Source: Thermoanaerobaculia bacterium (GTDB lineage Bacteria > Acidobacteriota > Thermoanaerobaculia > Multivoradales > J023). From it: a stretch of 64,000 nt of DNA. The stretch is taken from the NCBI GenBank assembly GCA_036397835.1, contig DASWIG010000100.1, positions 67-64,066 of the forward strand, written 5' to 3'. The first letter of the stretch is position 1. Every line of letters starts with the position of its first letter. Below the pieces are notes generated by a model. The model was not told the origin of the DNA. It ran no database searches and saw nothing but the letters and a program-made list of their open reading frames with translations. Of this stretch, positions 2,891-51,574 are shown in pieces. A program made the position numbers and the translations under genes.

Positions 2891-3067
2891 GGGTTGTCTC
2901 CTTTCGGTCGACCTTCGACCTGTCGTCAGACTTGAAGTGCAAGGGCCGTACCGGTCCCAAAGGCCCGTGTTCTCGTGCTTCCGCGGAGAGAACGTCCTCT
3001 ATTGGGGACGTCTTTCGCCTGCCCTACGTGCCTGCTAGGATGCCCGCGGAAGCTGGGGCTGCTTGGG

Positions 3068-3931
3068 ATGAAGACCTACCACGACATCGCGGGCGACGGC
3101 GGCTCGAACGTGGCCGCCCAGGTCGAGGCCCAGGGCCAGGCGATCGCCCTGGCGTTGGCCGGCGTGCGCCGGGTGGTGGCGGTCGCCTCGGGCAAGGGCG
3201 GGGTGGGCAAGAGCACGCTGACGATGGCGCTGGCCCGCGCCTGGCGCCGCGACGGCCGCCGCGTCGCCGTGCTCGACGCCGACTTCAACGGCCCCTGCCA
3301 GGCCGCGATGGCCGGCCTCGCCGGCGTCCCCTGGCTGCCCGGCGAGCGCGGTCTGGCGCTGCCGAATAGCCGCGACGGCATCGGCGTGGTGTCGCTGGGC
3401 AGCGTGCTCGAAGACGGGCGGCCGGTCGAGATCGCCAGCGTGGCGCCGGACGAGGAGCAGGTGTGGCGCGCCACCCGCGAGATCGCGACCCTGCGCCAGC
3501 TCCTGGCCACCGTCGAATGGGGCGAGCTCGACGCGCTCGTCGTCGACCTGCCGCCGGGCACCGAGCGCACGGTGCAGCTCGCCCAGGTCCTCGGCGTGCT
3601 GCCGGTCGCCGTCGCCTTCGCGCTCGTCACCATCCCGTCGGACCTCTCGCGCGGCGTGGTGGCGCGCTCGGCGGCGGCGCTCGCCGCGCACGGCGTGCGG
3701 GTGGTGGGCTATCTCGAGAACATGGACGGCTACCTGTGCCGCGGCTGCGGCGAGGTGCGGCCGCTCTTCCCGCACTCGGCCGTCGAGCTCGACTTGCCGT
3801 GCCTGGGGCGCATCCCCTTCGACCCGGCCCTCGCCGAGCTCGGCGGCGGCCGGACGGACGACGGCGCGCCGCCCTCGGCGGCGATCCGGGCCGCCGCCCG
3901 CACGATCTACGACCGACTGGAGACGTCATGA
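3068..3931 (+). CDS. mrp: Mrp/NBP35 (ApbC) family Fe-S cluster carrier ATPase
   Basis: VAVASGKGGVGKST deviant Walker A, then DADFNGP, and a CxxC (CRGCGE) near the C-terminus; ATG at 3068. Confidence 0.85.
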   Translation: MKTYHDIAGDGGSNVAAQVEAQGQAIALALAGVRRVVAVASGKGGVGKSTLTMALARAWRRDGRRVAVLDADFNGPCQAAMAGLAGVPWLPGERGLALPNSRDGIGVVSLGSVLEDGRPVEIASVAPDEEQVWRATREIATLRQLLATVEWGELDALVVDLPPGTERTVQLAQVLGVLPVAVAFALVTIPSDLSRGVVARSAAALAAHGVRVVGYLENMDGYLCRGCGEVRPLFPHSAVELDLPCLGRIPFDPALAELGGGRTDDGAPPSAAIRAAARTIYDRLETS

Positions 3932-4353
3932 AGTTCCTCTGCGTGAGCTGCGACGAGCCGATGAAGCTGGAGCAGGCCGGACCGCCCGACGACGGCGGCT
4001 CGATCACCGCGCTCTACGCCTGTCCGACCTGCTCGCACCGGATCGCGATGCTGACCAACCCCTACGAGACGCAGCTCGTGCAGTCGCTGGGGGTGAAGAT
4101 CGGCCCCGCGGCACAGGGGGCGGCGCAGCCGGCGGCGAGCGGGTGCCCGTTCTCGGGCATGCTCGGCGAGGTGCAGGCGGCGGCGGACGCCGGCGTCGCC
4201 TGGACGCCCGAGGCCCTGGCGCGGCTCGAGAACATCCCCGAGTTCGTGCGTCCGATGGCGCGCCAGGGCATCGAGCACTACGCCCGCTCCCACGGCCACG
4301 CCACGATCGACGACGCGGTGATGGAAGAGGCGCGGGGCCGCTTCGGGATGTAG
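3928..4353 (+). CDS. Small Zn-ribbon protein with PCP_red-like (protochlorophyllide reductase subunit C-terminal-like) domain
   Basis: N-terminal CVSCDE...CPTCSH (four Cys); C-terminal W-TPEALARLENIPEFVRPMARQGIEHYARSHGHATI; ATGA start/stop overlap with mrp. Confidence 0.55.
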   Translation: MKFLCVSCDEPMKLEQAGPPDDGGSITALYACPTCSHRIAMLTNPYETQLVQSLGVKIGPAAQGAAQPAASGCPFSGMLGEVQAAADAGVAWTPEALARLENIPEFVRPMARQGIEHYARSHGHATIDDAVMEEARGRFGM

Positions 4354-4358
4354 GGCGC

Positions 4359-4997
4359 CTAACCGTCGCCGGCCCGGCCGACGACGCGTTCGGTGAGCTT
4401 GGCGAGGGCCTCTTCCTTGCGCGCCAGCTCTTCCTTGACCGCGGCCAGCTCGGCGCCCTGGGCGGCGAGCCGGCGCTCGGCCGCGGCGAGCTTCTCGGCC
4501 AGAGTCTCGGCCTTGGCGGCGAGCGTGTCGTGGGACTCGCCGGTGGCGGCGGCGGCGGCCCGCAGCTCCAGGCGCTGGCGCTCGAGCTCGGAGGCCCGCG
4601 CCGCGGCACGGTCGGCGGCGGCGGCGAGGCTCTCGAAGGCGAGGATCTCCAGGCGGCGGGGATGGAGCCGGTAGGAGGCGACGAGCTCGGCGAGAAGCTC
4701 GCGTCCGCGCAGGGGGTCGTAGTGGCCCGACTCCGCGGCGAAGGCCGCGACGGCCACCGCGAAGAGGGCGCCGGCGCGCTCCGGCGCTCCCGGCTCGGTG
4801 GCGGCGAGCACGCTCTCGTAGATCTCCAGGGCGGCCTCTGTCCTGCCGTTGTTCCAGTACGTGTCGGCGTTCTTGAGGGCCTTTCGCGACGGCTGCCCGG
4901 CGGCGGCCACGGTGCCGTGCAACGGGACGACGACGGGCATGACGAGCCCGGCGGCGAGCGCGACGGCACCGATCAGGGCGATCCGGTTGGTTCTCAT
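4359..4997 (-). CDS. Secreted protein with a C-terminal coiled coil (hypothetical)
   Basis: ATG at 4997; signal peptide MRTNRIALIGAVALAAGLVMPVV; Ala/Glu/Leu-rich heptad-like C-terminus (ELERQRLELRAAAAATGES...). Confidence 0.5.
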   Translation of the reverse strand: MRTNRIALIGAVALAAGLVMPVVVPLHGTVAAAGQPSRKALKNADTYWNNGRTEAALEIYESVLAATEPGAPERAGALFAVAVAAFAAESGHYDPLRGRELLAELVASYRLHPRRLEILAFESLAAAADRAAARASELERQRLELRAAAAATGESHDTLAAKAETLAEKLAAAERRLAAQGAELAAVKEELARKEEALAKLTERVVGRAGDG

Positions 4998-5063
4998 GAC
5001 AACACCTCGCTTGACGACGTCGGCAGTTCTACCAGAGCCGCGCGAAGGCTTCAACCGGCCGAT

Positions 5064-5240
5064 CACGGCGGCGACTCCCCCTCTTCCCGCCGCAGCCAGG
5101 CCTCCAGGGCCTCGAGGGTGATCTTGTGCAGCGACTTGTGGCCCTTGCGGCGCATCGCCGTCCGCAACCGCTCGCCGAGCTCCGGCGGCAGGTCGACGGT
5201 CAGGATCGTGGTGGTCCGCGGGTTGTCGTCGTCGATCATG
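5064..5240 (-). CDS. Ribbon-helix-helix (CopG/Arc-like) small DNA-binding protein; not in the ORF track (58 aa)
   Basis: Own translation MIDDDNPRTTTILTVDLPPELGERLRTAMRRKGHKSLHKITLEALEAWLRREEGESPP: N-terminal beta strand plus two helices typical of RHH proteins. Confidence 0.45.
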
Positions 5241-5441
5241 GGATTCCCGATATGCTCCGAGGCGGAAAGATGTTAGCGCCTCAGCCGGCCGGGATCCAGC
5301 AAATCCTCGAAGGGCCTCGGCAAATCCTCGGCATACCCTCCGGCGGCGGCCATGTCCGCGCTCCGGGAGCCGCCGGGGCCTGGCGCTCAAAGTATTGGAA
5401 TAGAAACACTTGGCAGTGCCGCGGCCATTCCTCGCCGAGAT

Positions 5442-5457
5442 TGGCACGCGTCCTGCA
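5442..5457 (+). promoter_or_regulatory. Sigma54-type -24/-12 promoter (TGGCACG-N4-CTGCA) about 75 bp upstream of the first pilin gene
   Basis: tTGGCACgcgtccTGCAt: GG and GC spaced 10 nt as in the RpoN consensus TGGCAC-N5-TTGCA; a sigma54 activator is encoded at 16771. Confidence 0.5.
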
Positions 5458-5532
5458 TCTCCGCCAGGACGACGGCGAAGATTCACCGCGCCCCCGCGGT
5501 ACCCGACACCGGCGATCGGAGGTCGACGGAGC

Positions 5533-6255
5533 ATGAGACGACGAGACATCGCTAAGCGCACGAGCTCGGGATTCACCCTCATCGAGGCCCTGGTGGTGGT
5601 GGCCATCGTGGGTCTGATCGGGGCGCTCGTCTTCGAGACCATGACGGCTTACGTGCCGCGCTTTCGCTTGCGCCACGCCGCATCGGAAATGTCGATGCTG
5701 ATCAGCAAGGCCCGGCTGGAGGCGATCCGCCGCAGCGTCACCACGGTGGTGGCGGTCGACTATAGCGACCGCACGGTCTCCGCGTTCGCCGAGCTGAACG
5801 GCAATCCCAACGACCCCGAGAGGGCCGGCGCGCTCTATCTGGTCTACGATCCCGATCCCTTGGCGGAGCCGGACCGCACCGACTACCGGATCAGCCTCAT
5901 GACGCTGCCGGGCCCTCCCGAGGCCGGCGTCCAAATCGGCGGCCCCGTCGACGGCATCGAGGGCGCGGACGCACTGGTGGGACTGACTCCGACGCCCGGT
6001 GCCCTGGCGAACACGCCGAAGGTGCTCGTCTTCCATCCGAACGGCGCCGTCGACGCCCCGGGCGCGTTCCGTTTCACCGACAACCGGCAGACGAACTTCC
6101 TCGAGACGACGATCACCACCCTCACCGGCAAGACCGAGATCCGAAAGTACCTCCTGGCCGACGATTCGCCCACCAGCGTCGCGGGCTTCTTTCCCGAAGG
6201 CAACGTGTCGTTCGAGCCTGGCAGTGTGGGCCAGATCGCGTGGACCTGGTATTGA
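5533..6255 (+). CDS. Type IV pilin-like / GspH-FimT family minor pilin
   Basis: Start MRRRDIAKRTSSG^FTLIEALVVVAIVGLIGALVF: prepilin peptidase motif G/FTLIE with hydrophobic N-terminal helix; ATG at 5533 (the listed 5410 start is an extension). Confidence 0.75.
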   Translation: MRRRDIAKRTSSGFTLIEALVVVAIVGLIGALVFETMTAYVPRFRLRHAASEMSMLISKARLEAIRRSVTTVVAVDYSDRTVSAFAELNGNPNDPERAGALYLVYDPDPLAEPDRTDYRISLMTLPGPPEAGVQIGGPVDGIEGADALVGLTPTPGALANTPKVLVFHPNGAVDAPGAFRFTDNRQTNFLETTITTLTGKTEIRKYLLADDSPTSVAGFFPEGNVSFEPGSVGQIAWTWY

Positions 6256-8335: not shown

Positions 8336-8940
8336 ACGGCCTGGCGAGAAACCAACACGGCAGCATGTTCATCATGGTGCTGCTGATCCTCCTGATCCTC
8401 ACCGCGGTGGCGCTCTCCCTGGTCTTCGTCACCGAGATCGAGATGCAGCTCGGCGGCACCGAGAGGGTGATGAACCTGACCTTCTTCGCGGCGGAGACGG
8501 GCGTCCACGCGGCGCTGGCCGGCGTGCCCAACCAGAACTGGGCGGGCGAGAAGCTCGTCTTTCCGGAGGGACCGGGCGGCGGCCCAGGCAGGCAGCTCGG
8601 CACCCGCGTGATCACCACCCGCGTGCGCACCGTGGGACCGCCGCAGCTTCCGCCGATGACGATCGCCAACGAGGGCGAGAACGACTACCACACCTTCGCC
8701 ACCTTCCTGCGCTCCACGGCCCAGCGCGTGAGCTGGCCGCAGACCGAGCAGGTGCCGATCTACGACGAGGGTGACCTGCGCGAGCTCGACGTGACCATCC
8801 AGTCGCAGCAGACCCTGGAGGTGCGCTACCTGCTCTCGCCGGTGAGGACGCCGCCGAGCCCCGAGCAGCCCTACAGCGACGAAACCGACCGGGGCTTCGG
8901 AGCGCCGCCGCCGCCCCCGCCTCCGCCGACCGTGCCCTGA
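8332..8940 (+). CDS. PilX-like minor pilin/pseudopilin with Pro-rich C-terminus
   Basis: MNGLARNQHGSMFIMVLLILLILTAVALSLVFVTEIEMQ resembles the PilX N-terminal domain; 4-bp overlap with the PilW-like gene; poly-Pro tail. Confidence 0.6.
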   Translation: MNGLARNQHGSMFIMVLLILLILTAVALSLVFVTEIEMQLGGTERVMNLTFFAAETGVHAALAGVPNQNWAGEKLVFPEGPGGGPGRQLGTRVITTRVRTVGPPQLPPMTIANEGENDYHTFATFLRSTAQRVSWPQTEQVPIYDEGDLRELDVTIQSQQTLEVRYLLSPVRTPPSPEQPYSDETDRGFGAPPPPPPPPTVP

Positions 8941-8998
8941 CGACCCGGTCCGGTCCGCCTGCGAACGCCGAAAAACCAATAAGAAGCCGGAGGCTCCG

Positions 8999-11900
8999 AT
9001 GTCCAAGCCCAACGCCGTCTCCTCACGTTTCGCGCTCACGACCTTCGTCCTCGCCGCCTTGCTGGCTGGCGGAGCGGCCGCCGACGACCGCGACCTGCTG
9101 CGCGAGTCGGGAGCCAATCCTTACGTCTTCATCGTCTTCGACACCTCCGGCTCGATGCACTGGACGCCGAAGTGTACCCAGGAGCAGTTCGACGACGGCA
9201 CCTGCGACTTCCTGTGCCCGACGGGAGACTGTTTCGCAGCGATGAACGGCGACGATCCGGCGTCGAAGTTCCGCCAGGCCAAGGAGGCCCTCTACGAGGT
9301 GATCGGCGGGCTCGAGGGCATCAACTACGGCTTCATGACCTACAACCAGGACAGCCTCCGGGTGCACGAGAAGCACTTCCTGTACCGGGTCAGCGACACC
9401 CAGCCCGACGGCGTCACGCCCAACGCCTCGCTGACGCTGGTCAACGGCGATGCCTTCCCCGCCATCGCCCGCCATTGCACGCTCTCCGGCGCCGGCTGCA
9501 ACGCCGACGCCGACTGCGGCGCGCGCGGCGGCACCTGCGAGTACGAAGACGTCTTCGGCGCCGGCTGGAATTGCGACGAGGGCACGGGCGACCAGAGAAA
9601 GGGCTGCTATGGCAGCTCGAGCCGCATCGCGGACATGAACGACGACTGGGAGCTGCGCCGCGCCCAGCGCGTGCCCAAGCTGGGCCGCGGCCCGGATTTC
9701 TCTGGTATCGCCAGCGGCGAATACCAGGACGACTTCGACGCCGACTCGTTCCTCAACGACGACGGCAGCCTGAGCTGGTCGGGCGGCTGGATCGAGTCCG
9801 ATCACTCCGGCGGCGCCGGGCCGACGGCCGGCAACGCGCAGATCTCGGGCGGCAAGCTGCGTCTCGACCACAATACCAGCCCGCCCGTCCCGTCGAGCCT
9901 GGCGCGCCAAGCGAACCTCGGATCGTGGCTCGGCGCCGTGCTCGAGTTCGACTGGGAGGTGGTGGGCGGCCTCGAGACCAACGACGCGGTGGAGGTCGAG
10001 ATCTCGTCCAACGGCGGCTCCTCCTGGACGATCCTCGAGCGATTCTCCGGCTTCAACAACCCCACCGGCGGCAGCCGGAGCTACGACGTGACGGCCTACG
10101 CCGCGAGCAACACGCAGATCCGGTTCCGCGTCGCGAACGAGCTCCGCGGCTCCGACGAGCAGTTCCGGGTCGACAATCTGGTGCTCCGTCCCGACATTCC
10201 GGAAACCGTGATCTACCTGCGCAACAACGCCGACGGCCGACGCTACAAGCTCATCTACCGGCCGGTGGCGACGCTGCCCGACGGCAGCGCCAACAAGTAC
10301 GGCAATTCGAAGCTGGCGGTGGAGATCGAGGTCCGCCAGTGCACCGACGACAACGACAACTGCGCTTCGAGCTTCGTGGACAAGGAGGTCGTCTACTACG
10401 ACCTGGTGGACGAGTACGGCTCGTGGGACAACGGCGCCGACCGCGGTCCGCGCACCATGGGCTTCTTCAACCAGTCGTCGGCCGGCGACGCCGACGCCAC
10501 CAACACCTGCACCGGCGGCGACCACAACGACGACGCCGACGCCGACAAGTATCCGGACTCCGCGGGCTACAACTTGCGATGGCCGACCGATCCCGACCCG
10601 CCGCCGCTGCGTTTCGACACCGACGGCGACGGCTTCCTGGATCTCGAGGATTTCCCGGTCGGCGACCTGGTCCCTTTCGACTGGGAAGACGACCACAAGG
10701 TCGATCTGCTCGAGCGGCTGGCGCCCAACACGGGCGTCAATCCGGCGGCGCCGCCGGACTTCCGCGTGGCGAGCTACTTCCGTGACGTGCACCAGAGCGG
10801 CGAAGACTTCCTGCGCCTCAAGGACGAGCGGATGCGGCCGATGGTCGCCGAGGGCGCGACGCCTCTCGGCGGCGCCGTTGCGGACTTTCGCGAATGGTAC
10901 AGCGGCTGCCGGATCGGCACCTGCCCGGGCGCCACCGGCTGGCAGGACGTCGCCGTGGTTTTCGACCGCGACTTCAACTGCCGCAAGAAGTTCCTGATCG
11001 TGCTCACCGACGGAGACAACACCTGCACCGGTCCCTCCGCCTGCACGGGCACGGCGAGCCTGCAAGCCCAGTTGGGCATCAAGACCTACGTGGTCGCCTT
11101 CGGCGTCGCGCAGGGCAACGGCAACACGCTCACCTGCATGGCGAACAACGGCGGCACCGGCGAACCGATCTACCCGCAGAACAAGGAGGAGCTGGTCACG
11201 GCCCTGAATGAGCTGTTCGGCGAGATCAAGGTCGCAGCGCGCTCCTTCGCTTCGGCCTCGGTGCCCACGGTGCAGAACGAGACCTCCGACAAGATCTACC
11301 TCTCGAGCTTCACGCCGCTGCCCGACATCGCGGTGTGGCCGGGGCGGGTCAACGCCTTCCGCAAACCCTTGCCCTTGAAAGACGACAACACGCCCGACTT
11401 CGACCGCAAGTGCGATACCGGGAGCCCCTTGACGTCGTTGCAGGCCTCCTGCCACCTGTGGGACGCCAGCGCGGAGCTTCTGAACCAGGCGCCGACGGCG
11501 ACCGACGTCGCCGGCGGGGACTACAAGATCGGCAACGCCGCCGACGAGCGTCGGGTGCTCTACAGCCAGCGGCGGGTCAACGAAGCCGTACCCACGGACC
11601 TTCGACTGTTCCTGCCGCCGACCGCGGCCTCGCCCGCCTCGGCCAACGAAATCGACCTGTGGGACGGGCTCGGCCTCGCCTACATGCCCGGCGACGCGGC
11701 GTCGGAGGCGGCGGCGCGGACCGAGGCCGAACGGATCGTCGGCGAGACCTTGCGGATCAAGGAGGAGTCCATTCCCGATCCCGACGATCCCATCAACAAT
11801 CCGCCCCAGGAGTTCACCTACGTGCTCGGCGACATCTTCCACGCCGATCCGGAGGTGCTCGGCGGCCCCACCAACCTGATCTACTTCCGCGACGACCTGA

Positions 11901-13846
11901 ACGGCTACCAGGACTACGCCGAGCAACACTTCTGGCGCCGCAAGATGCTGGCGGTGGCGGCCAACGACGGCCAGCTCCACTTCTTCGACGCCGGCATCCG
12001 CACCGAGGTCTTCGACCCCTTCGCCGGCGTCACCGTGGAGAGGTTCACCGACGGTACCGGCGCCGAGCTCTTCTCCTACATCCCGCGGCTGGTGCTGCCG
12101 ATCGTCCGCGACCAGGCGGGCGGACCCCAGCACATCTATTCGCTCGACGGCGTCTTGTCGGGCGCCGACGTCTTCATCGATCCGCTCCACGACGGCACCA
12201 ACAACACCCCCGCCGACCGCGGCTGGCGCGCCGTCCTGGTGTCGGGCCTGCGCGAGGGCGGCGACGTGTTCCGCCAATCCGCTCCCACGCCGGGCTTCGT
12301 CAGCGGCTACTTCGCGCTCGACGTGACCCAGCCGGACGTGCTGGTCACGCCGGCGCCGTCGCCGGCCGACCCGGAGCCGCGCCCGCGTCCGACGCCGGCC
12401 GGGCAGCTCGTGCCCTCCTGCCTGGGCTTCGACGCCGACGGCATTCAAACGCTCTCGAGCGCCTGCCCGACGCCGGCGGGGGCGGACTTCGGCTTCCCGA
12501 TGGAGCTGTGGTCGTTCACCGACGCGGCGCCGTTCACCCTCGGCGGCCCCTACTACCTCGACGAGGAAGACGCCAACGGCGACGGGCTCCCCGACGGCAA
12601 CGACGAGCGCGATCTGGGCGATACCTGGTCGAAGCCGATCGTCGGGCGGATCCGCATCTGCACCGGAGTGACCTGCGACCCGGCCGCCGACCCCAACGAC
12701 ATCGAGGACCGTTACGTGGCCATCTTCGGCGGCGGCCTCGAGCCCAAGAGCCCGAACAGCTCGCTGCGCGGCGCCTGGCTCTACATGGTCGACGTGGAGA
12801 CCGGCCGCGCCATCTACAAGCGCCAGCTCGAGGGCGCCGCCGCCGCCGCGCCGACCGTGCTCGACGGCGACCGCGACGGCTACTTCGACACGATCTACAT
12901 CGGCACCACCCTCGGCTTCATCTACAAGGTCGACCTCACCGCCCTCGACTCGACGGGCGGCGTGCCGCGGCTCGTTGCCGTGACCATCGACAACTCCCGC
13001 CTGGTGGGCAGCCCGCTCGCCCCTGCCGACAGCGCCACGGTGGAGCGCGTCACCGACGCCGCCTGGAAGCCCTTCAAGATCTTCTCCACCAACGGGCGGC
13101 CGATCTACATGACGATCACGGCGTTCGTGGTGCCGGACCTCGAGCAGTTCGCCCTCGCCGTGGGCACCGGCAACCGGCACAACCTGTGGACGCGCAACGG
13201 CGTCGAGGCGCGCTTCTACGTGATCGTCGACGAGAGCTACACCCCGGCCTCGGCCGGGCTGCCGAAGACCGAGGCCAGCTACGCGGCCGTCGCCGACACC
13301 GACCCCGAGACCACGGACAGCTTCCTGCTCGACCGCAACCCGGGCGAGCGCGGCTGGGTGCTGCGGCTCGGCGTCGACGAGCGGGTGATCACCCAGGCCT
13401 TCGCCCTGGTCGGGGTGATGGTCTTCACCTCCTTCGATCCCGATCCCGACCCCGACCCCCTGGCCGGCGCCTGCGCGCGCTCGGGCGACAGCCGGATCTT
13501 CGTGGTCGACGGGGAGAACGCCAACGCCTTCGTCGACCTCGATCCCTCGACCGCGGGCACCGAGCGTTACCTCACCGAGGGCGACTTCACCACCTCGCCC
13601 TACGTAGACCAGACCAGCACCAAGAACCCCGGCACCTCCGGCAAGACCACCGAATCGGAGGACGACGCTACCCAGGTCGCGTTGCAGGAGGCGATCCGCC
13701 AGGCTCTCATGCGGTTCTTCCCCGAGGGCTGCCGGTACAACAAGGCGTACTCGTTCACCGTCAACGCCAGCCGCTCCGATACCGGGCACGTGCGCTACGC
13801 TACGATTCCGGTGGCGATGTGTCCGATCGACTGGAACGAGGAGTAG
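8999..13846 (+). CDS. pilY1: PilY1-like type IV pilus tip adhesin (vWA domain plus large C-terminal beta-propeller-like region), 1615 aa
   Basis: Signal peptide; YVFIVFDTSGSMHW vWA MIDAS-like DxSGS motif; position directly after the FimT-PilV-PilW-PilX genes as in pilY1 loci; Asp/Gly-rich Ca-binding-like stretches. Confidence 0.75.
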   Translation: MSKPNAVSSRFALTTFVLAALLAGGAAADDRDLLRESGANPYVFIVFDTSGSMHWTPKCTQEQFDDGTCDFLCPTGDCFAAMNGDDPASKFRQAKEALYEVIGGLEGINYGFMTYNQDSLRVHEKHFLYRVSDTQPDGVTPNASLTLVNGDAFPAIARHCTLSGAGCNADADCGARGGTCEYEDVFGAGWNCDEGTGDQRKGCYGSSSRIADMNDDWELRRAQRVPKLGRGPDFSGIASGEYQDDFDADSFLNDDGSLSWSGGWIESDHSGGAGPTAGNAQISGGKLRLDHNTSPPVPSSLARQANLGSWLGAVLEFDWEVVGGLETNDAVEVEISSNGGSSWTILERFSGFNNPTGGSRSYDVTAYAASNTQIRFRVANELRGSDEQFRVDNLVLRPDIPETVIYLRNNADGRRYKLIYRPVATLPDGSANKYGNSKLAVEIEVRQCTDDNDNCASSFVDKEVVYYDLVDEYGSWDNGADRGPRTMGFFNQSSAGDADATNTCTGGDHNDDADADKYPDSAGYNLRWPTDPDPPPLRFDTDGDGFLDLEDFPVGDLVPFDWEDDHKVDLLERLAPNTGVNPAAPPDFRVASYFRDVHQSGEDFLRLKDERMRPMVAEGATPLGGAVADFREWYSGCRIGTCPGATGWQDVAVVFDRDFNCRKKFLIVLTDGDNTCTGPSACTGTASLQAQLGIKTYVVAFGVAQGNGNTLTCMANNGGTGEPIYPQNKEELVTALNELFGEIKVAARSFASASVPTVQNETSDKIYLSSFTPLPDIAVWPGRVNAFRKPLPLKDDNTPDFDRKCDTGSPLTSLQASCHLWDASAELLNQAPTATDVAGGDYKIGNAADERRVLYSQRRVNEAVPTDLRLFLPPTAASPASANEIDLWDGLGLAYMPGDAASEAAARTEAERIVGETLRIKEESIPDPDDPINNPPQEFTYVLGDIFHADPEVLGGPTNLIYFRDDLNGYQDYAEQHFWRRKMLAVAANDGQLHFFDAGIRTEVFDPFAGVTVERFTDGTGAELFSYIPRLVLPIVRDQAGGPQHIYSLDGVLSGADVFIDPLHDGTNNTPADRGWRAVLVSGLREGGDVFRQSAPTPGFVSGYFALDVTQPDVLVTPAPSPADPEPRPRPTPAGQLVPSCLGFDADGIQTLSSACPTPAGADFGFPMELWSFTDAAPFTLGGPYYLDEEDANGDGLPDGNDERDLGDTWSKPIVGRIRICTGVTCDPAADPNDIEDRYVAIFGGGLEPKSPNSSLRGAWLYMVDVETGRAIYKRQLEGAAAAAPTVLDGDRDGYFDTIYIGTTLGFIYKVDLTALDSTGGVPRLVAVTIDNSRLVGSPLAPADSATVERVTDAAWKPFKIFSTNGRPIYMTITAFVVPDLEQFALAVGTGNRHNLWTRNGVEARFYVIVDESYTPASAGLPKTEASYAAVADTDPETTDSFLLDRNPGERGWVLRLGVDERVITQAFALVGVMVFTSFDPDPDPDPLAGACARSGDSRIFVVDGENANAFVDLDPSTAGTERYLTEGDFTTSPYVDQTSTKNPGTSGKTTESEDDATQVALQEAIRQALMRFFPEGCRYNKAYSFTVNASRSDTGHVRYATIPVAMCPIDWNEE

Positions 13847-19868: not shown

Positions 19869-21350
19869 TTACTTCCTTTTGGCGGCGGCGTCCTCGCGCA
19901 GGCGCCGGAGCTCGCGCAGGCGCTCGCCGATCTTGCCCTCGAGCCCGCGCGCCGTGGGCTCGTAGAACCGCGCGCCCTGGAGCGCGTCGGGCAGGCAGTC
20001 GAGGCCGCCCACGCCCTCGTCGGTGTCGTGGGCGTAGACGTAGCCGTCGCCGTAGCCGAGGTCCTTCATCAGCGCGGTGGGCGCGTTGCGGATCGCCGGC
20101 GGCACCGGCTCGGCCGGACGCTCGGCGACCGCCCGCCGCGCCGCCCCGAAGGCGCGGTAGACGGCGTTGGACTTGGGCGCCACGGCGAGGTAGACCGCGG
20201 CCTGGGCGAGCGCCAGCTCGCCCTCGGGCGAACCGAGGCGCTCGTAGGCCGCCCAGGCGTCGAGGGCCTGGGAGAGCGCCCGCGGATCGGCCAGCCCCAC
20301 GTCCTCGCTGGCGAAGCGCACCATGCGCCGCGCCAGGTAACGGGGGTCCTCCCCCGCCTCGAGCATCCGCGTCAGCCAGTAGAGGGCGGCGTCGGCGTCG
20401 CTCTCGCGCAGCGACTTGTGGAGCGCCGAGATGAGGTTGAAGTGCTCCTCGCCCGCCTTGTCGTAGAGCAGGGCCTTGCGCTGCTCCACGCGGCGCACGT
20501 CCTCGAAGCTGACGTTCGTCCGGCCGGCGGAGCGGGCGTCCTCGACCACCAGCTCGAGCAAGTTGAGGGCGCGGCGCGCGTCGCCCGAGGCGAGCTGGAC
20601 GAGGTCGAGCAGCGCCTCGTCGGCGATCGCCAGGTCGGCGGCGCCGAGCCCGCGCTCGCCGTTGGCGAGGGCGCGGCGGAGGATCTCGAGCAGCTCGCCC
20701 TCCGCCAGCGGCTTCAGCACCACCACCCGGCAGCGCGACAGCAGGGCCGAGTTGACCTCGAACGACGGATTCTCGGTCGTCGCCCCCACGAGCACGATGT
20801 CGCCGCGCTCCACGTAGGGCAGGAAAGCGTCCTGCTGGGCGCGGTTGAAGCGGTGGATCTCGTCGACGAAGAGCAGGGTGCGGCGGCCGTCGGCGCGGCG
20901 GTAGCGCCCCGCGTCCTCCATCACCTTCCTGACCTCCTTGATGCCCGAGGTCACGGCCGAGAAGGGCACGAAGCGGCACGAGGTGGCGCGGGCGAGGATG
21001 CGGGCCAGCGTGGTCTTGCCGCTGCCCGGCGGCCCCCAGAGGAGGAGCGAGGGCACGCGGTCCTCGGCGATCGCCCGCCGCAGGAAGCCCTGCGGCCCGA
21101 GGATCTCGGTCTGCCCCACCATCTCGTCGAGGGTGCGCGGGCGCAGCCGCTCGGCGAGCGGGGTGCCGCCCAGCGGGGTGCCGGGCTCGTCCGCGGGCGC
21201 GGCGCCGGCGGGCAGCGAGGCAGGCGCTTGATCGTCGAAGAGGGTGCGGATGACGTGCTCCTTCGTCCGTTTTCGCAGTCTATCGCCAGGTAGGCGTCGA
21301 GCGCGTAGTTGAGGCTTGCAAAAACCAACACTATCCGTTAGTTTCTGCAA
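19869..21350 (-). CDS. rarA: Replication-associated recombination protein A (RarA/MgsA AAA+ ATPase); start uncertain
   Basis: PLAERLRPRTLDEMVGQ...LLLWGPPGSGKTTLARILA...LLFVDEIHRFN...GATTENPSF, collinear with E. coli RarA; the only in-frame starts are GTG 21374 / TTG 21350, which overlap the abiEi promoter. Confidence 0.8.
   Translation of the reverse strand: MQKLTDSVGFCKPQLRARRLPGDRLRKRTKEHVIRTLFDDQAPASLPAGAAPADEPGTPLGGTPLAERLRPRTLDEMVGQTEILGPQGFLRRAIAEDRVPSLLLWGPPGSGKTTLARILARATSCRFVPFSAVTSGIKEVRKVMEDAGRYRRADGRRTLLFVDEIHRFNRAQQDAFLPYVERGDIVLVGATTENPSFEVNSALLSRCRVVVLKPLAEGELLEILRRALANGERGLGAADLAIADEALLDLVQLASGDARRALNLLELVVEDARSAGRTNVSFEDVRRVEQRKALLYDKAGEEHFNLISALHKSLRESDADAALYWLTRMLEAGEDPRYLARRMVRFASEDVGLADPRALSQALDAWAAYERLGSPEGELALAQAAVYLAVAPKSNAVYRAFGAARRAVAERPAEPVPPAIRNAPTALMKDLGYGDGYVYAHDTDEGVGGLDCLPDALQGARFYEPTARGLEGKIGERLRELRRLREDAAAKRK
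21316..21350. promoter_or_regulatory. Inverted repeat TTGCAAAAAC-N15-GTTTCTGCAA directly upstream of the abiEi SD/start; candidate AbiEi auto-operator
   Basis: Seen directly; AbiEi antitoxins are known to autoregulate via inverted repeats in their promoter. Confidence 0.5.
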
Positions 21351-21366
21351 GAAGGAGCTAGTTCCC

Positions 21367-22158
21367 TTGCCCACAAGCGCGCCGTACTACGTCACAGGCC
21401 TGGCGTCTCGCGGTCGCTACACGTTCACCGCCGCGCAAGCCCAGGCGGAGCTCGGGGGCTCGGAGGTGGCCGTCCAGGCGGCGTTGAGGCGTCTCAGGAA
21501 GAAGGGCGAGATCGCGATGCCGACCCGAGGGTTCTACGTGATCGTGCCGCCTGAGTACCGACAACTCGGATGCCTGCCTGCCGCTGAGTTCGTACCGGAG
21601 CTCATGGCGTACCTGGACGCTCCCTATTACGCCGGGCTGCTCACCGCGGCCCAGATCCATGGAGCGGCCCATCACAAGCCTCAGGTCTTCCAGGTGGTGA
21701 CCAACCGTAACCGACGGCCTTTGGGTGCGGGACGAGTCCGCGTCGTCTTCATCGCCAAGGCGAACCTCGAGGCGACGCCAACGACGGAAGTGGTCACGGA
21801 GCGCGGGTACCTGCGCGTGTCGACGCCGGAGGCCACGGCGTTCGACCTCGTCATCTATTCGGGCCATGCCGGGGGGCTGAACAACGTCGCGACCGTTATC
21901 ACCGAGCTTGCCGAGCGGCTCGAGGCAGAGCAGCTCTCCAAACTGGCTCGTGACGGCGTGCCAGTGGCCTCGGTCCAGCGTCTTGGATTCTTGCTGGAGC
22001 TCACGGGTCACCGGGCGTTGGCTGATCGCTTGGCCTCCATCATCGAGGAGAAGTCACCACCCATAGCGCCTCTCCGTGCTGGCCATGCTCTGCGCGGAGC
22101 CCTTCGTGATCGGAGATGGCACCTCGGCGTCAACGTGGACGTGGAGCCAGACGTTTGA
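21367..22158 (+). CDS. abiEi: AbiEi-family antitoxin / transcriptional regulator (type IV TA)
   Basis: N-terminal wHTH-like region ...RLRKKGEIAMPTRGFYVIVPPEY typical of AbiEi; TTG start 9 nt after AAGGAG; paired with the AbiEii gene downstream. Confidence 0.7.
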   Translation: MPTSAPYYVTGLASRGRYTFTAAQAQAELGGSEVAVQAALRRLRKKGEIAMPTRGFYVIVPPEYRQLGCLPAAEFVPELMAYLDAPYYAGLLTAAQIHGAAHHKPQVFQVVTNRNRRPLGAGRVRVVFIAKANLEATPTTEVVTERGYLRVSTPEATAFDLVIYSGHAGGLNNVATVITELAERLEAEQLSKLARDGVPVASVQRLGFLLELTGHRALADRLASIIEEKSPPIAPLRAGHALRGALRDRRWHLGVNVDVEPDV

Positions 22159-22946
22159 TACCCCCGGCCTACGTCACCGAGTGGCGAGAACACGCGCCCT
22201 GGCCCTCGGACGATCAGGTAGAGCAGGACCTGATCATCTCGCGAGTGTTGGTCGAGCTCTACGGCCAACCCGAGATCCGGGAGGCGCTGGCCTTTCGAGG
22301 CGGAACCGCTCTGGCGAAGCTCTACTTGGGGCCGGCCTATCGGTACTCCGAAGATGTCGACCTCGTGCAGCTTCGGGCCGAGCCCATCGGGCCGACCCTC
22401 AAAGCCATGCGCGAGGTGCTCGACTCATGGCTCGGTCCTCCCTCGTGGAAGCATACGTTCGCGAGCGTGAAGCTGATCTACCGGATCGCGCTCGGCCGCA
22501 ACGCCACGAACCAGCGGCGGCTCAAGCTCGAAATCAACACGCGGGAACACGAATCCGTCTTTGGATTGACCGCCAGGAATCTGACAGTGGAGTCGCGGTG
22601 GTTCACAGGTAGCGCGGCCGTCACCACCTACGAGCTCGAGGAGCTCCTCGCGACCAAGCTCCGGGCTCTGTACCAGCGAAAGAAGGGGCGTGACCTCTTC
22701 GATCTCGCTACTGCCCTGACGGGAGAGAAGATTGATCCGGAACGGGTGGTAGAGGGTTTCATCCGCTATCTCGAGAGAGAAGGCCGGCGGATCTCACGGG
22801 TAGAATTCGAGGGGAACCTCGCGGAGAAGATCCGGGATGTCGATTTCTTGGCGGATGTCCCGAATTTGGTTGCGACAGATACCGAATACGATGTGGTCGA
22901 GGCTGCCGATCGGGTGCGCGAGAATCTTCTCTCCCGACTCGATTGA
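22155..22946 (+). CDS. abiEii: AbiEii/AbiGii-family nucleotidyltransferase toxin (DUF1814)
   Basis: ALAFRGGTALAKLYLGPAYRYSEDVDL is the hallmark GG-TAL...R-SEDID motif; TTGA start/stop overlap with abiEi. Confidence 0.85.
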   Translation: MIPPAYVTEWREHAPWPSDDQVEQDLIISRVLVELYGQPEIREALAFRGGTALAKLYLGPAYRYSEDVDLVQLRAEPIGPTLKAMREVLDSWLGPPSWKHTFASVKLIYRIALGRNATNQRRLKLEINTREHESVFGLTARNLTVESRWFTGSAAVTTYELEELLATKLRALYQRKKGRDLFDLATALTGEKIDPERVVEGFIRYLEREGRRISRVEFEGNLAEKIRDVDFLADVPNLVATDTEYDVVEAADRVRENLLSRLD

Positions 22947-23169
22947 GCCGCCCGTGGCCAGGTGCTGGCGCCGGCCGCGGTGCGCCGAATCAGGTTCGGT
23001 CGGACTTCTTGGCCTTGTGGAACAGCTTCAGACCGTCGTTCTCCCGCCAGACGTTCCAGGCCTCGACACCCTGCCTTAGAATCTTGAGATGCGCTTCGTT
23101 GGCACTCCTCCTCCTCGATCGTGGCGAGGCGATCCTGTGCCTATGCGGGCTGATCATGGGGCATCTGGA

Positions 23170-23463
23170 TCATAGCTTTTTGAGCCAGTGGGCTGGACGT
23201 TTTAGGTGCGGAGGAAGCCTGGTCCAGGCATCACCTCGGGCGGCGTCGATCTGCAGCTGCAGAAGGTTCTTTACTTCGTGGAGATCCGCGCCGCTCAGGT
23301 CCGCGTCGCTGAGACCTACACCGTGTAGGTTCGCCCCGATCAGGTTTGTCCGAATCAGGTTCGCGTCCGTGAGGGCTGCCAACTTGAGGTCTGCGTCGCT
23401 GAGGTTCGCGCTGCTAAGGTTCGGTTCGCGAGTCTGCAAAGTAGGGGGACAAGCCTTGGACAC
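23170..23463 (-). CDS. Pentapeptide-repeat protein (short); 5' end lies inside the tandem-repeat array, so the start is uncertain
   Basis: [45 protein letters not shown] is an A(D/N)LXX pentapeptide run. Confidence 0.5.
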
Positions 23464-23812
23464 CTACTTCGCGAGTTTGCATAGTAGGGGGACAAGCCTT
23501 GTACACCTACTTCGCGAGTTTGCATAATAGGGGGGCAAGCCTTGTACCGCCACTCTGCGGACGACGATCTAACCGGGACAAGCTCTGAAGCGGTCAGGCG
23601 CGAATTTGCAGAGCAGGAGGGCAAGCGATGTACTCCTGCACTTCGCGGGGTAGGGGTACAAGCGACGTACCCCCTACTCCCGCACTTCGCAGAGTAGGGG
23701 TACAAGCGAAGTACACCTACTTCCGCACTTCGCTGAGTAGGGGTACAAGCGATGTACACCTACTCCTGCACTTCGCAGAGTAGGGGTACAAGCGACGTAC
23801 CCCTACTCCCGA
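23428..23812. repeat. Tandem array of about 8 units of a ~43-bp repeat containing hairpin GTAGGGGTAC-N7-GTACCCCTAC (variant GTAGGGGGACAAGCCTTGTACACCTAC), interrupted by ~90 bp at 23555-23640
   Basis: Seen directly; lower GC than the flanks; the last unit supplies the stop codon of the FG-GAP gene and the first unit overlaps the pentapeptide ORF start. Confidence 0.8.
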
Positions 23813-26418
23813 AATCCGCGGGGTGGTCGAAACGGCGGTGTCCTCGTCTTCCCGGGTGCAGCCGGGACGCCTGCGCTCCCAGTACCGAGATAGGCGTCGA
23901 GCTCGCGGAAGGCGTCAGCGGGCTCCGGTTGGCCGTCCCACCGCTCCCAGAAGCGCGCCAGGGGCGACGGCTCGGTGTGCATGCGCCGGGCCACGTCGCC
24001 CTCGGCGACCGCTCCCGCGGGCTTCCAGTCCTCGCCGAGGGCCTGGCGCGCGGCCCTGAGCAGGTCCGCGGCGGCACCGTCGTCCCCCCGTTTCCAGGCC
24101 AGGTAGCCGCGCAGGAAGAAACCGCCGGCCGCCCGCGGGTTGGTGCGGCAGGCCCACTCGAAACGCTGGTCGGCGAGCGCGTCCTCGCCCTCGAGCAGCG
24201 CGATCTCGCCCAACGCCAGGAGCGAGCCGGTCTCCTCCTTGTTGACTTCGTGGGCGCGCTCGAGCGCGGCCTCGGCGGCGTCGAGCTCCGCCCGCGAGGT
24301 GGCGGTCAGGGCGCGCAGCACGCCCCATTGCTTGTGGCCGCGGTGGCTCAGCGGGTTGGCGCGGCGCAGACGATCGAGCTCGGCCAGGGCCTCGTCGGGC
24401 CGGCCGAGCTCCGCCAGGCAGTTGGCCAGGTAGTAGCGCGAGTCCTCGTGCTCGGGGTTCAGGGCCAGGGCGCGACGGAAGAGCTCGGCGGCGCGGCCGA
24501 CGTCGCCGTCGACCTTCATGGCGTCCATGGCGGCCCTTTGCGTCGACCAGAACTCCATCAGGCGCCGGCGCTCGTCGAGCGTCGCGAGGGCGGGCGCTGT
24601 AACCCTGGCGGAGATCCGGCGCGGCTCAGGGTCGCCCTCGGTGAGCTCCCACACGGCGCCGGCTGCGAGGTCCGCGAAGACCTGCGACTCGCCGCCGAGC
24701 CACCGCACCTCGAGACGCGAGACGTGCTCGGCGGTCCCCAGACCGAAATGCACCGTGCCGCTGCTCTGCGACAGGTAGGACGCGCCGCCGACTGAACGCC
24801 GCAGCTCGACGCCATCGTCCAGGGTGGCGACGAGGACGGCGCCCTCGCCCGGGCCGCGCCGCGCGTCGCGCAGCCGCACCGCGAGCCAGCGGCCCTGCTC
24901 CATGTCGTTGCGCAGCAGCTTGACGCCTTCGTAGAGGTGGTAGACGGCCACGTCGAGGTCGCCGTCGCCGTCGTAGTCGGCCACCGCCAGGCCGCGGCCC
25001 ACGTGGGGCGCGGCAAAGACCTCGGCGAGCGGCGCAAGGTCGTGGAAGTACTCGCCGCGCCGGTTCCACAGCAGCATCGCCGGCTGCGGCTTGAGGCCCC
25101 TGGGCTGCCGGTCGTCCTCCAGGGTGCTGCCGTTGGCGACCACCAGGTCGAGCCAGCCGTCGCTGTCGAAGTCGGCGAACTCGGTGCCCCAGCCCACGAA
25201 TTGGAGCGCGATCTGGCCGAGCCCCAGGGGCACCGCCTGGTCGGTGAAGGAGAGGCGCACCGGGGCGCCGGCGGGCACGGCGCGGCGCAGGTCGGCGAGG
25301 CGTGAGTCGTAAAGGGCGTTCTCCTGGGCGAGCCAGTGGGTGATGAAGAGGTCGTCGTCGCCGTCGCGGTTCCAGTCGCCGGCGGCCAGCCCCATGGCGC
25401 CGCGGTAGTCGGCCACCCAGGCTTGCAGGCCGGCGTCCTCGAAGGTGTCGCCGCGGTTCAGGAAGAAGGCGTTGTCGGAGATGTCGTTGGCCACGTAGAG
25501 GTCGAGGCGGCCGTCGTCGTCGAAGTCGTGCCAGAGGGCCGAGAGGCTGCGGCCCTGCGGGTTCTGCACGCCGTAGAGCAGGGCCACCTCGGTGAACGCG
25601 CCCGTGCCGTCGTTCTCGAAGAGCAGGTTGCGCTCGGGCTCGAAGGAGGCGGGGTTGAGGGTGTAGGGCACGGCGGCGCCGTATTGCTGGGAGAGGCTGC
25701 GCCGGTCGCCGGCGTCCTCCACGTACTGCACGTAGCCGCACACGTAGAGGTCGAGGTCGAGGTCGTTGTCGAAGTCGCCCCAGGCGGCGCCGGCCCAGTA
25801 GCCGTCGGGCGCGACGAAGCGCTCGTCGCGTTCGAGCGCGCCTTCACGGTTGTGGAAGAGGAGGAGGCTGCGGTAGCCGGTCACCACCAGGTCGAGCCAG
25901 CCGTCGCCGTCGTAGTCGCCCCACGACGCGGCCATCCCGGCGACGCGGATCTCCGGGAAGCCCGCGACCTTGAGGAACGTCCCGTCGCCGCGGTTCTCGT
26001 AGAGCTCCGACGGCGCCCACTGCGACCGCGGTAGGGTCAGGGCGCCGCCGGCGGCGACCAGGAAGATGTCGTCGTCGCCGTCGTTGTCGTAGTCGCCCCA
26101 GGCGAGGCCGGCGCCCATGTCCTCGGGAAGCTGCGACGAGCGCGCGCCGGTGAAGGTCACGAAGCCGTCGAGCCCCGCCGCCGCGGTGACGTCGGTGAAG
26201 CGGGGCGCGGGCGCGTCCGCCGGCAGGTCGCGCGAGAGCTTCGCGGTGACGTCGTCGAGGGCCTCGCCGGGCCGCCGCACCTCGGGCCGGGTCCGGAGGT
26301 AGATCACCACGCCGGCCGCCGCCGCCACGAGCGCCACGGCGGCCAGCACGGCGACGACCAGGCGCAGCCGCTGGCGGCGGGTGAGGCGTCGGCGGGCGGG
26401 GCGCAGGTCGTTGCCCAT
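23803..26418 (-). CDS. FG-GAP/ASPIC-UnbV repeat protein with C-terminal TPR domain; N-terminal TM anchor
   Basis: Repeated GDYDNDGDDDIF / WGDYDGDGWLDL / GDFDNDLDLDLY / HDFDDDGRLDLYVAN / DYDGDGDLDVAV FG-GAP Ca-binding loops; TM LRLVVAVLAAVALVAAAAGVVIY. Confidence 0.75.
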   Translation of the reverse strand: MGNDLRPARRRLTRRQRLRLVVAVLAAVALVAAAAGVVIYLRTRPEVRRPGEALDDVTAKLSRDLPADAPAPRFTDVTAAAGLDGFVTFTGARSSQLPEDMGAGLAWGDYDNDGDDDIFLVAAGGALTLPRSQWAPSELYENRGDGTFLKVAGFPEIRVAGMAASWGDYDGDGWLDLVVTGYRSLLLFHNREGALERDERFVAPDGYWAGAAWGDFDNDLDLDLYVCGYVQYVEDAGDRRSLSQQYGAAVPYTLNPASFEPERNLLFENDGTGAFTEVALLYGVQNPQGRSLSALWHDFDDDGRLDLYVANDISDNAFFLNRGDTFEDAGLQAWVADYRGAMGLAAGDWNRDGDDDLFITHWLAQENALYDSRLADLRRAVPAGAPVRLSFTDQAVPLGLGQIALQFVGWGTEFADFDSDGWLDLVVANGSTLEDDRQPRGLKPQPAMLLWNRRGEYFHDLAPLAEVFAAPHVGRGLAVADYDGDGDLDVAVYHLYEGVKLLRNDMEQGRWLAVRLRDARRGPGEGAVLVATLDDGVELRRSVGGASYLSQSSGTVHFGLGTAEHVSRLEVRWLGGESQVFADLAAGAVWELTEGDPEPRRISARVTAPALATLDERRRLMEFWSTQRAAMDAMKVDGDVGRAAELFRRALALNPEHEDSRYYLANCLAELGRPDEALAELDRLRRANPLSHRGHKQWGVLRALTATSRAELDAAEAALERAHEVNKEETGSLLALGEIALLEGEDALADQRFEWACRTNPRAAGGFFLRGYLAWKRGDDGAAADLLRAARQALGEDWKPAGAVAEGDVARRMHTEPSPLARFWERWDGQPEPADAFRELDAYLGTGSAGVPAAPGKTRTPPFRPPRGFRE

Positions 26419-50964: not shown

Positions 50965-51002
50965 ACGCGCTCAGCGCAGACGGCCTCGAGGCGGGGCGCG
51001 AC

Positions 51003-51190
51003 AATGACCATTGAGACGCGATGAACGCCCTTTCATCATGGGCTAACGTAAGTTGGCGCATGATGAGTGACGAGAAATCGCGGCTCAATGACCATTGAGA
51101 CGCGCCGGACGTGTCGTCCATCATGGGCCAATATCGTTGGCGCATGATGAACGGGGAGAAAACGCGCCTCAACGGCCATTGAAGCGTCCC
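51003..51190. repeat. About 2.2 tandem copies of an 84-bp repeat (CAATGACCATTGAGACGCG...TCATCATGGGC...TTGGCGCATGATGA), then a GC hairpin GGGCAGGCACGGGGGCCTGCCC
   Basis: Seen directly; each unit has an internal inverted repeat CATCATG/CATGATG; low GC. Confidence 0.75.
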
Positions 51191-51248
51191 CAGGGCAGGC
51201 ACGGGGGCCTGCCCCTACGCCGGACGGCCCGCGATCAGCATAGGGGGC

Positions 51249-51351
51249 TTGATCCTGATGCCTGTGATGCGCTATACTGGCGTCTGATGAGCATCAGATA
51301 GACGCATAGGACGCACAGACGACGCACCAAGACGCACAGACGACGCACCAA
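51249..51351 (+). promoter_or_regulatory. Sigma70-like promoter (TTGATC-18-TATACT), then a perfect 16-bp palindrome TCTGATGAGCATCAGA and two 21-bp direct repeats GACGCACAGACGACGCACCAA, just before the SD AAGGAG of the RHH gene
   Basis: Seen directly at 51249-51278 (promoter), 51283-51298 (palindrome), 51310-51351 (DRs). Confidence 0.5.
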
Positions 51352-51361
51352 GGAGACCGCC

Positions 51362-51574
51362 ATGCCCCGACTGACCATCGAGTTCCCCGAAGAGGGCGAC
51401 AGGATCCTGAGCAAGCTGGCCAAGGACGAAGACACCACCAAGCGCGAGGTGATCCGCCGCGCTCTGGCACTCTACAACTACATCCACAAGGAAGGCGTGA
51501 GGATGGGCGGCGGCGAACGCCGCCTGTCGATCACCGACAAGGACTCCAAGGTCGTCAAGGACATCATCATCTGA
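51362..51574 (+). CDS. Ribbon-helix-helix (CopG/ParD-like) DNA-binding protein
   Basis: MPRLTIEFPEEGDRILSKLAKDEDTTKREVIRRALALYNY is the beta-alpha-alpha RHH pattern; ATG after AAGGAG. Confidence 0.6.
   Translation: MPRLTIEFPEEGDRILSKLAKDEDTTKREVIRRALALYNYIHKEGVRMGGGERRLSITDKDSKVVKDIII

Follow-up and report, generated by a model that had tools for sequence, protein, structure and literature searches.

Tandem 43-bp hairpin units at the 3' end of an FG-GAP gene in a Thermoanaerobaculia bacterium belong to a dispersed mosaic element

The window, as we call the whole stretch of 64,000 nucleotides analysed here, comes from a contig of a Thermoanaerobaculia bacterium, an acidobacterium of soil, and our subject is a tandem array of hairpin-forming 43-bp units that it contains at positions 23424 to 23812. 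The array belongs to a low-GC variable islet (21300-23820) that also holds an AbiE gene pair and the remnant of a TIR-pentapeptide gene, and it reaches into the 3' end of a gene for an FG-GAP/ASPIC/TPR protein, the FG-GAP gene in what follows. The GC content is 59% in the element of which the array is part, against 73.6% in the rest of the FG-GAP gene and 70% in the window.

A preliminary description of this DNA had claimed a tandem 43-bp hairpin array. Both Tandem Repeats Finder and a count of the core motif bear this out: the program reports two 43-bp arrays (23425-23547, 2.9 copies with 93% match, and 23631-23811, 4.2 copies with 89% match), and the core motif TAGGGGKACAAGCSWNGKAC has 9 matches with at most 3 mismatches, where 0.06 are expected. 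The description counted about eight units around a unique segment of about 90 bp. The units are there, but they number nine, in register from 23425 to 23812: three A units, a central unit, a transitional unit and four B units, the middle 86 bp being two further units in the 43-bp register and not unrelated sequence. The interval that it gave, 22950-23820, includes on its left a segment, 22950-23423, that is not array, and on its right it stops short of a conserved tail that extends to about 23884. The parts are the following, none with a strand of its own:

23424..23553: three A units of 43 bp (23425-23467, 23468-23510 and 23511-23553), from Tandem Repeats Finder, the register listing and folding
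23554..23596: central unit with its own hairpin (CTAACCGG...CGGTCAG), from the comparison of units across copies
23597..23640: transitional unit (GAGCAGGAGGGCAAGCGATGTAC...), from comparison across copies and strains
23641..23812: four B units of 43 bp, from Tandem Repeats Finder, the register listing and folding
23813..23884: right module, one decayed unit and then a unique tail ending in ...GCGCTCCCAGTACCG, from nhmmer, alignment A2 and translation

An A unit consists of the imperfect palindrome GTAGGGGGAC-AAGCCTT-GTACACCTAC and the linker TTCGCGAGTTTGCAT; a B unit, of GAGTAGGGGTAC-AAGCGAY-GTACMCCTACTC and the linker CCGCACTTCGCA. The tetranucleotide GTAG, as in REP sequences, stands at the head of six of the nine left arms, and every unit is told apart by its own substitutions. 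In what follows, L-numbers designate loci on metagenome contigs; same-species contigs from several metagenomes carry the window locus itself, among them L014 and L016. Compared with these two, the transitional unit of the window allele has a right arm shortened by a 6-bp deletion. The position of the central unit does not change from one copy of the element to another. Its stem is a perfect 9 bp in L034 (CCTAACCGG/CCGGTTAGG), and the central units L014.4 and L034.5 are 86% identical, against 47% at most between this unit and the other units of the L014 array.

Some other readings were tried for the array and rejected. Against a coding repeat stand the period of 43 bp, which is not divisible by 3, and the fact that the open reading frames (ORFs) of the array do not have the GC pattern that this genome shows at third codon positions. 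An integron attC site would have the core GTTRRRY/RYYYAAC, which reading of the sequence finds in none of the units, nor is there an integrase nearby. Finally, two pairs of sigma-70-like hexamers lie in the A units at 23457-23528 on the plus strand (TGGACA-17-CATAGT and TGTACA-17-CATAAT), pointing into the B half; they were discarded as promoters, the -10-like hexamer not being conserved in the third unit of L014 or at other loci.

The palindromes are less regular than the preliminary description had it, which gave about eight units the 10-bp-stem hairpin: GTAGGGGTAC is present four times in the array and GTACCCCTAC once, and both exact arms come together in one unit only. The sole perfect hairpin, at 23778-23808 in a B unit, has arms of 12 bp and a loop of 7 nt; the other B units have one mismatch or bulge, and the A units two mismatches. 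Folding energies run from -15 to -28 kcal/mol for the B units, against -8 to -13 for shuffled sequences, and from -9 to -15 for the A units (about -13 to -15 for the first two), against -7 to -10. For the third A unit and the central unit (23519-23604), folding is no better than that of shuffled sequence. Among 39 distinct units, 81% of the pair cells form pairs (72.5% in shuffles), and two-sided changes occur at seven of the twelve stem pairs. On these two grounds the palindromic symmetry is maintained, and not merely inherited. Conservation is uneven within a unit, far stronger in the left arm and at the beginning of the loop than in the right arm, GAGTAGGGGTACAAGCGA being near-invariant across units and the right arms variable.

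Folding of this strength, and compensatory changes in the stems, would be expected if each copy of the element encoded a long non-coding RNA of many hairpins, for instance one that serves as a protein sponge or as a scaffold with about ten similar stem-loops, and had its promoter in the left module. We hold this explanation to be unlikely. The whole element folds equally strongly on both strands (z = -8.1 and -9.1), and the transcribed strand, sought through the balance of G-T and A-C mismatches, leaves no signal (22 versus 17). Rfam has no family for it: in the window there is no match at gathering score, and the sub-threshold matches, with E values up to 5, are chance ones.

Other copies of the element were located by a strict scan for the 20-mer core motif in one collection of metagenome contigs. 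Arrays are found at four or more further loci, L034/L023, L033/L026, L022 and L027, none of which encodes the proteins that neighbour the array in the window: the genes next to them are those of a MoxR ATPase at L034/L023, of an ABC-2 permease and a peptidase M2 at L033/L026, and of DruA with IS66 fragments at L022. The order is common to all copies: a left module, three to four A units, the central hairpin, the transitional unit, four to five B units, and a right module; in L033 alone the A half, as one block, has the opposite orientation. Both end modules align across loci, the left one (about 60 bp, alignment A1) in three loci, the right one (about 75 bp, nhmmer and alignment A2) being kept at all four of the other loci.

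A unit resembles most closely the unit that has the same position in another copy. L014.3 and L034.4 are 93% identical, as are L014.9 and L033.10, and L034 and L022 agree position by position at 88-100%, the difference between them being one A unit. Since units match best by position between copies, the composite of about 0.5 kb was copied in one piece and did not arise locally, with later gains or losses of single units. The array was thus not generated in place. The preliminary description's suggestion of a class of structured repeats in this genome is supported: the same composite stands at four or more other loci, at least one of them in the same metagenome-assembled genome (MAG). Indeed, a protein of the L033 locus is identical to HEX9733843.1, and the L027 neighbour falls in a 90% cluster with HEX9735370.1. 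Both carry the Third Party Annotation (TPA) names of a Thermoanaerobaculia MAG and share their accession prefix with the HEX97311xx proteins of the window; because names and prefix match, the L033 and L027 copies most probably come from the MAG of the window, and the family is then multi-copy in one genome.

That architecture and unit number are kept across diverged copies, and the left module in three loci, would again suit an RNA gene; however, a conserved promoter or terminator was not found, and the element lies in either orientation relative to the neighbouring genes. Outside this collection, the GTDB representative genomes, which do not include the source genome, give 8 single chance matches and no copy, and the viral contigs and plasmids that were scanned hold no copy of the element.

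The L033/L026 locus offers two further observations. The ORF of the ABC-2 permease extends into the right module, where its frame is not that of the FG-GAP gene. Inside the same permease gene, 161 bp of L033 (5203-5363) are replaced by 278 bp in L026 (4852-5129), and this strain difference starts about 20 bp beyond the right end of the element.

In the window, the element is entangled with the genes on both sides. Their features are:

23803..26418, minus strand: FG-GAP/ASPIC/TPR gene, 871 aa, HEX9731181.1, its native 3' end overwritten by the element
23803..23805, minus strand: stop codon TAG of the FG-GAP gene, from the CTAC/GTAG end of the last B hairpin
23423..23424, no strand: junction of a 2352-bp deletion relative to L014 (L014 11270-13621)
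23170..23463, minus strand: 97-aa pentapeptide ORF, a probable pseudogene, 3' remnant of the TIR-pentapeptide gene
21367..22946, plus strand: AbiEi (21367-22158) and AbiEii (22155-22946), a type IV toxin-antitoxin pair

The preliminary description placed the array between convergent genes; the two flanking ORFs are in fact both on the minus strand, and co-directional. It was right that the array supplies the stop of the FG-GAP gene, the TAG at 23803-23805 being the CTAC of the last hairpin read on the other strand. Nine orthologues of the FG-GAP protein, at 64-71% identity, end 1-8 residues past a conserved LDA+L motif; those of related species stop 19-26 residues before the window protein, which has 27 extra C-terminal residues, GTGSAGVPAAPGKTRTPPFRPPRGFRE. 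This tail begins at about 23884-23886, exactly at the onset of DNA similarity to the right module of L033. Most of the last 27 residues are encoded by the right module, on its minus strand, and the last B unit contains the three terminal codons. At the orthologous loci of related species, L036 and L037, no array follows the FG-GAP gene; the nearest orthologous loci share 70-71% protein identity with the window. Because the orthologues are without the element and end earlier, it has taken the place of the native stop codon, adding 27 codons.

Beyond the 3' end of the FG-GAP orthologue, L036 has a gene for a TPR protein (3764-5937) and L037 one for a SIR2_2-domain protein (3627-4711). These genes differ, and the window has yet others, AbiE and the TIR gene, which suggests that the 3' flank of the FG-GAP gene is a variable slot, often occupied by defence-type genes.

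The position of the array directly 3' of a stop codon, together with its stable hairpins, invites the hypothesis that selection acted on it at this site, for termination of transcription or for insulation of the FG-GAP gene from the defence islet downstream, all the more as arrays 1 and 3 of the window, like this one, begin 0-40 bp after a stop codon. We regard it as very unlikely. An intrinsic terminator has a GC-rich hairpin and a run of U, and no T-run follows any hairpin of the array; consensus scans find no terminator-like site within it, which leaves the bidirectional terminator of the preliminary description without support there. Moreover, at other loci the element faces the 5' ends of genes (MoxR at L034/L023, and L022), and orthologues in related species do without it.

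Assemblies of the window locus from other samples give a first view of its stability. The array is base-for-base identical in the independent assemblies L013 and L015, and in the partial ones L019, L020 and L024. The arrays of L014 and L016 differ from it by a 6-bp and a 1-bp indel, with three substitutions in addition in L014. The variation in unit number that a comparison of strains might have revealed does not appear at this locus among the assemblies compared. One may ask whether the array is a collapsed or chimeric repeat, an artefact of assembly, as three short-read contigs end inside it (L019, L020 and L024). The probability of this is close to nil: independent assemblies of other samples recovered the same sequence, and two more a near-identical one, its units are distinguishable by their substitutions, and the same architecture recurs at other loci.

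The left side of the locus is another matter. In L014 the TIR-pentapeptide gene is intact, with 433 aa, and between this gene and the array lie two small ORFs, a REP doublet and the left module of about 60 bp. Relative to L014, the window lacks 2352 bp; both breakpoints fall within a GGTTCGC heptamer, and a 5-nt duplication marks the junction. With this segment went the left module, the REP doublet, both small ORFs and the 5' portion of the TIR-pentapeptide gene. What is left is the 97-aa ORF, made of the last 85 or so codons of that gene and about 13 codons from the first A unit. A strain-specific deletion of 2352 bp has thus fused the remnant to the array. In the preliminary description the array was said to supply the first 15 codons of a pentapeptide gene: it does supply codons, but about 13, which are owed to the junction at 23423/23424, and the overlap is one with a deletion-truncated pseudogene and not a designed one. 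For an RNA gene with its promoter in the left module, two facts of this comparison are unfavourable: the window copy persists across samples despite the loss of that module, and divergence between strains is no slower in the array than in the coding DNA on its flanks.

Both alleles of the 2352-bp polymorphism are found in several samples. The corresponding region of L014 (11016-13621) contains a YafQ-like 52-aa ORF paired with a 73-aa ORF, most of the 433-aa TIR-pentapeptide gene, and a 59-bp repeat in two copies with the inverted REP doublet (13270-13295 and 13404-13429). The islet varies at its other end as well: L014 has, at 8605-9050, between the MgsA/RarA gene and AbiEi, an extra pair formed by a HicA-like gene (79 aa) and a 69-aa gene, which the window does not have (about 21250-21300), and MgsA is called with 458 aa in L014 but with 493 aa in the strain of the window type. 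A 55-aa ORF (22990-23157, minus strand), without Pfam or NCBIfam match, follows closely downstream of the remnant and contains the string GVEAWNVWRE. This string resembles the N-terminal lead-in of pentapeptide-repeat proteins, in which case the ORF may be another gene fragment.

Several long ORFs run through the array, at 22943-23527 (plus), 23355-23759 (minus) and 23752-24795 (plus), and lack the codon-position GC pattern of the genome. The 194-aa ORF among them is listed as a gene in public calls on L019 and L020, and a start MYTYS... inside the array is the mechanical first start of a long ORF at L023/L034. They are likely to be annotation artefacts caused by the repeat.

On balance, and with moderate confidence, we read the array as the body of a non-coding mosaic palindromic repeat element, about 0.5 kb long, of the REP/BIME/BOX kind. 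The whole element has been copied to several loci, it has captured the end of a gene, its number of units changes by single 43-bp steps, and its edges coincide with structural polymorphisms between strains. The element would be non-autonomous, spread probably through single-stranded hairpin intermediates by an enzyme encoded by the host, for which a HUH transposase of the RAYT/IS200 type is our best guess; local slippage or unequal recombination might later add or remove units. Once in place, its role could be a passive one: the 3' end of the FG-GAP transcript would carry stable stem-loops in a stack, able to bar 3' exonucleases and perhaps read-through. It may also act as a recombination-prone boundary of the adjacent islet of defence genes.

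With the REP and BIME sequences of the GTAG superfamily (PMC3733652, PMC2817692), the element shares imperfect palindromes of about 30 bp that start with GTAG; its 31-nt palindromes have the size of the short (20-40 bp) imperfect stem-loops of that superfamily. It also shares the frequent clustering at regular spacing with other conserved motifs, which makes a mosaic, and a location after genes and sometimes into the 3' ends of ORFs. Moreover, a classical GC-rich REP tagged with GTAG, GTAGGGGCAGGCCCCCGTGCCTGCCC, co-occurs in the same genome, at 51193-51218 of the window and as the inverted doublet of L014. A survey of GTAG and CGTC repeats published in 2013 found in Acidobacteria RAYT-like genes flanked by terminal inverted repeats, and no GTAG REPs (PMC3733652). 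Clustering, the formation of ORFs and insertion at the 3' ends of ORFs are documented for both REP and BOX (PMC3733652, PMC3049150).

The BOX elements of Streptococcus pneumoniae and S. suis, of structure boxA-(boxB)n-boxC (PMC3049150), enclose between unique ends a variable number of tandem units of about 45 bp, much as the modules of alignments A1 and A2 enclose the A and B units here. They fold strongly, range in size from 67 to 637 bp, give rise to ORFs and to 3' adducts of genes, and seem for the most part dormant. On the other hand, BOX elements have terminal inverted repeats and target-site duplications, they have one boxB type where we find two types of unit and a central hairpin, and they belong to an unrelated phylum and show no sequence similarity. 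A GC content below that of the host is typical of MITE-like repeats, and has been reported for RUP and SPRITE, not for BOX (PMC3049150). The REPINs and REPIN clusters of Pseudomonas (PMC3116915, PMC3337134) are likewise non-autonomous and hairpin-forming, consist of REP units, occur in tandem arrays, and are inherited vertically and persist for long. A REPIN, however, consists of an inverted doublet, has its cognate RAYT and is present in hundreds of copies, unlike the 9-11 direct units in few copies described here.

Several facts weigh against an assignment to this kind of repeat. REP families usually have tens to thousands of copies, and here the copy number is apparently low, about five loci by the strict 20-mer scan of one metagenome collection. 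Within each half the units have a direct orientation, not the alternating one of BIMEs, and what was copied is the entire 0.5-kb composite. CTAC on the right arm mirrors GTAG, which is hence base-paired, whereas GTAG REPs are defined by an unpaired tag. The left module compared with the reverse complement of the right one gives no significant terminal inverted repeat, shuffles scoring at least as high in 164/500, 33/500 and 29/500 cases; the end modules not being such repeats, the element is not a classical MITE (a miniature transposable element with inverted repeats). No transposase is linked to it, and no Y1 transposase is found among the ORFs examined near arrays. Lastly, order and number of units (9-11) are kept across copies that are only about 77% identical, which could reflect selection for a function rather than neutral persistence. 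Given the absence of alternating orientation and of terminal inverted repeats, the paired GTAG and the low apparent copy number, the element fits no single known family, and we file it as a variant of the REP/BIME/BOX kind.

The MIRUs of mycobacteria should also be mentioned: their tandem units, 40-100 bp long, are scattered over tens of intergenic loci and overlap the stop and start codons of flanking genes. Scattered tandem units that overlap stop and start codons are what we see too, but MIRUs are non-palindromic, have no unique end modules, and vary in unit number between strains, a variation not seen here.

The window contains a second array of comparable build, array 1 (1222-1660), the one discussed so far being array 2. 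It consists of ten exact 42-bp units, each a palindrome and a linker, with stems CGGCAAGCAC/GTGCTTGCCG; as the preliminary description stated, it is unrelated to array 2 in sequence, yet built alike. Its unit number is constant in 8 other contigs (loci L040-L047). In strain L047, the 425 bp of array 1 have 17 substitutions, against 0 in the adjacent 684-bp ABATE/CGNR gene and 3 differences in about 400 bp on the other flank; 15 of the 17 changes fall outside the stems (P = 0.0025). This pattern is our main reason to keep a special class of structured repeats in view. In viral contigs the array 1 motif is limited to two isolated palindromes.

A generating mechanism shared by the three arrays of the window is plausible. 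A stronger proposal is that three unrelated arrays of 42-43-bp hairpins in 64 kb are the products or substrates of one dedicated and undescribed machinery, to which we give little credence. The module order and the ten or so units of array 2, and the stems of array 1 kept while its loops and linkers change much faster than the gene beside it, would fit a functional hairpin-array system, which, as against selfish REP-like DNA, could be an RNA that titrates a protein, a nucleoprotein platform, or an array undergoing diversification.

The platform can be stated more precisely: the palindromes would be duplex DNA sites for a dimeric protein, one every four helical turns, forming a sopC-like or nucleoid-associated complex. 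The 43-bp period is about four helical turns, the left arm and loop start are conserved in sequence and not only in pairing, and array 1, with its conserved stems and six free central nucleotides, has the pattern of a dimer operator. SopB binds the sopC centromere of plasmid F, whose 12 units of 43 bp make up one locus beside sopAB; as here, each of its tandem units has a short inverted repeat. However, the present copies are scattered over several chromosomal loci with unrelated neighbours, beside which there is no parA/parB, sopA/sopB or recurrent DNA-binding gene, and several units are degenerate. The match to the ParA family at 2975-3931 of the window is of the NUBPL/Mrp type. With no partition or replication genes, several loci and no plasmid match, a sopC-like centromere or a set of iterons was rejected, and a DNA platform of any sort seems to us quite improbable.

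A guide-RNA array, like CRISPR or TIGR, was also considered, given regularly spaced palindromic repeats and the loops and linkers that vary between the conserved stems of array 1. The spacers of CRISPR arrays have about 26 nt or more. TIGR arrays have two alternating repeats of 8-12 nt, or variable palindromes, two variable spacers of about 9 nt and box C/D motifs, and lie beside the gene of a Nop-domain Tas protein (PMC12045711). Array 2 resembles neither in its period and segment lengths: the whole 43-bp unit is repeated, near-identically, with no unique or variable spacers. Neighbouring genes encode no cas domains, and there is no Tas or Nop-domain gene nearby. Array 2 was thus rejected both as a CRISPR and as a TIGR-Tas array, and a guide-RNA origin is extremely improbable.

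Other repeats of the window lie past htpG. Directly after this gene, at 51002-51352, there are 2.2 copies of an 84-bp repeat with long hairpins, followed by the classical GTAG-tagged REP, which is on the minus strand. A 21-bp direct repeat, GACGCACAGACGACGCACCAA, occurs twice in the window, just upstream of a 70-aa ribbon-helix-helix gene (51362-51574); L010 and L012 have a 21-bp insertion in this region, apparently a third copy.

These results document a mosaic palindromic repeat family in Thermoanaerobaculia, an uncultivated class of acidobacteria, with a build, direct tandem GTAG...CTAC hairpins between unique end modules, unlike that of BIME, BOX or REPIN. The element has remodelled a gene, replacing the stop codon of a conserved FG-GAP/TPR protein and adding 27 residues to it, and its edges coincide with strain-level deletions in an islet of defence genes (AbiE, TIR-pentapeptide). 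There are consequences for annotation as well: spurious ORFs are called across the repeat, and assemblies of short reads are interrupted within it. Should the conserved architecture be due to a function, the element would be a new hairpin-array RNA or DNA element.

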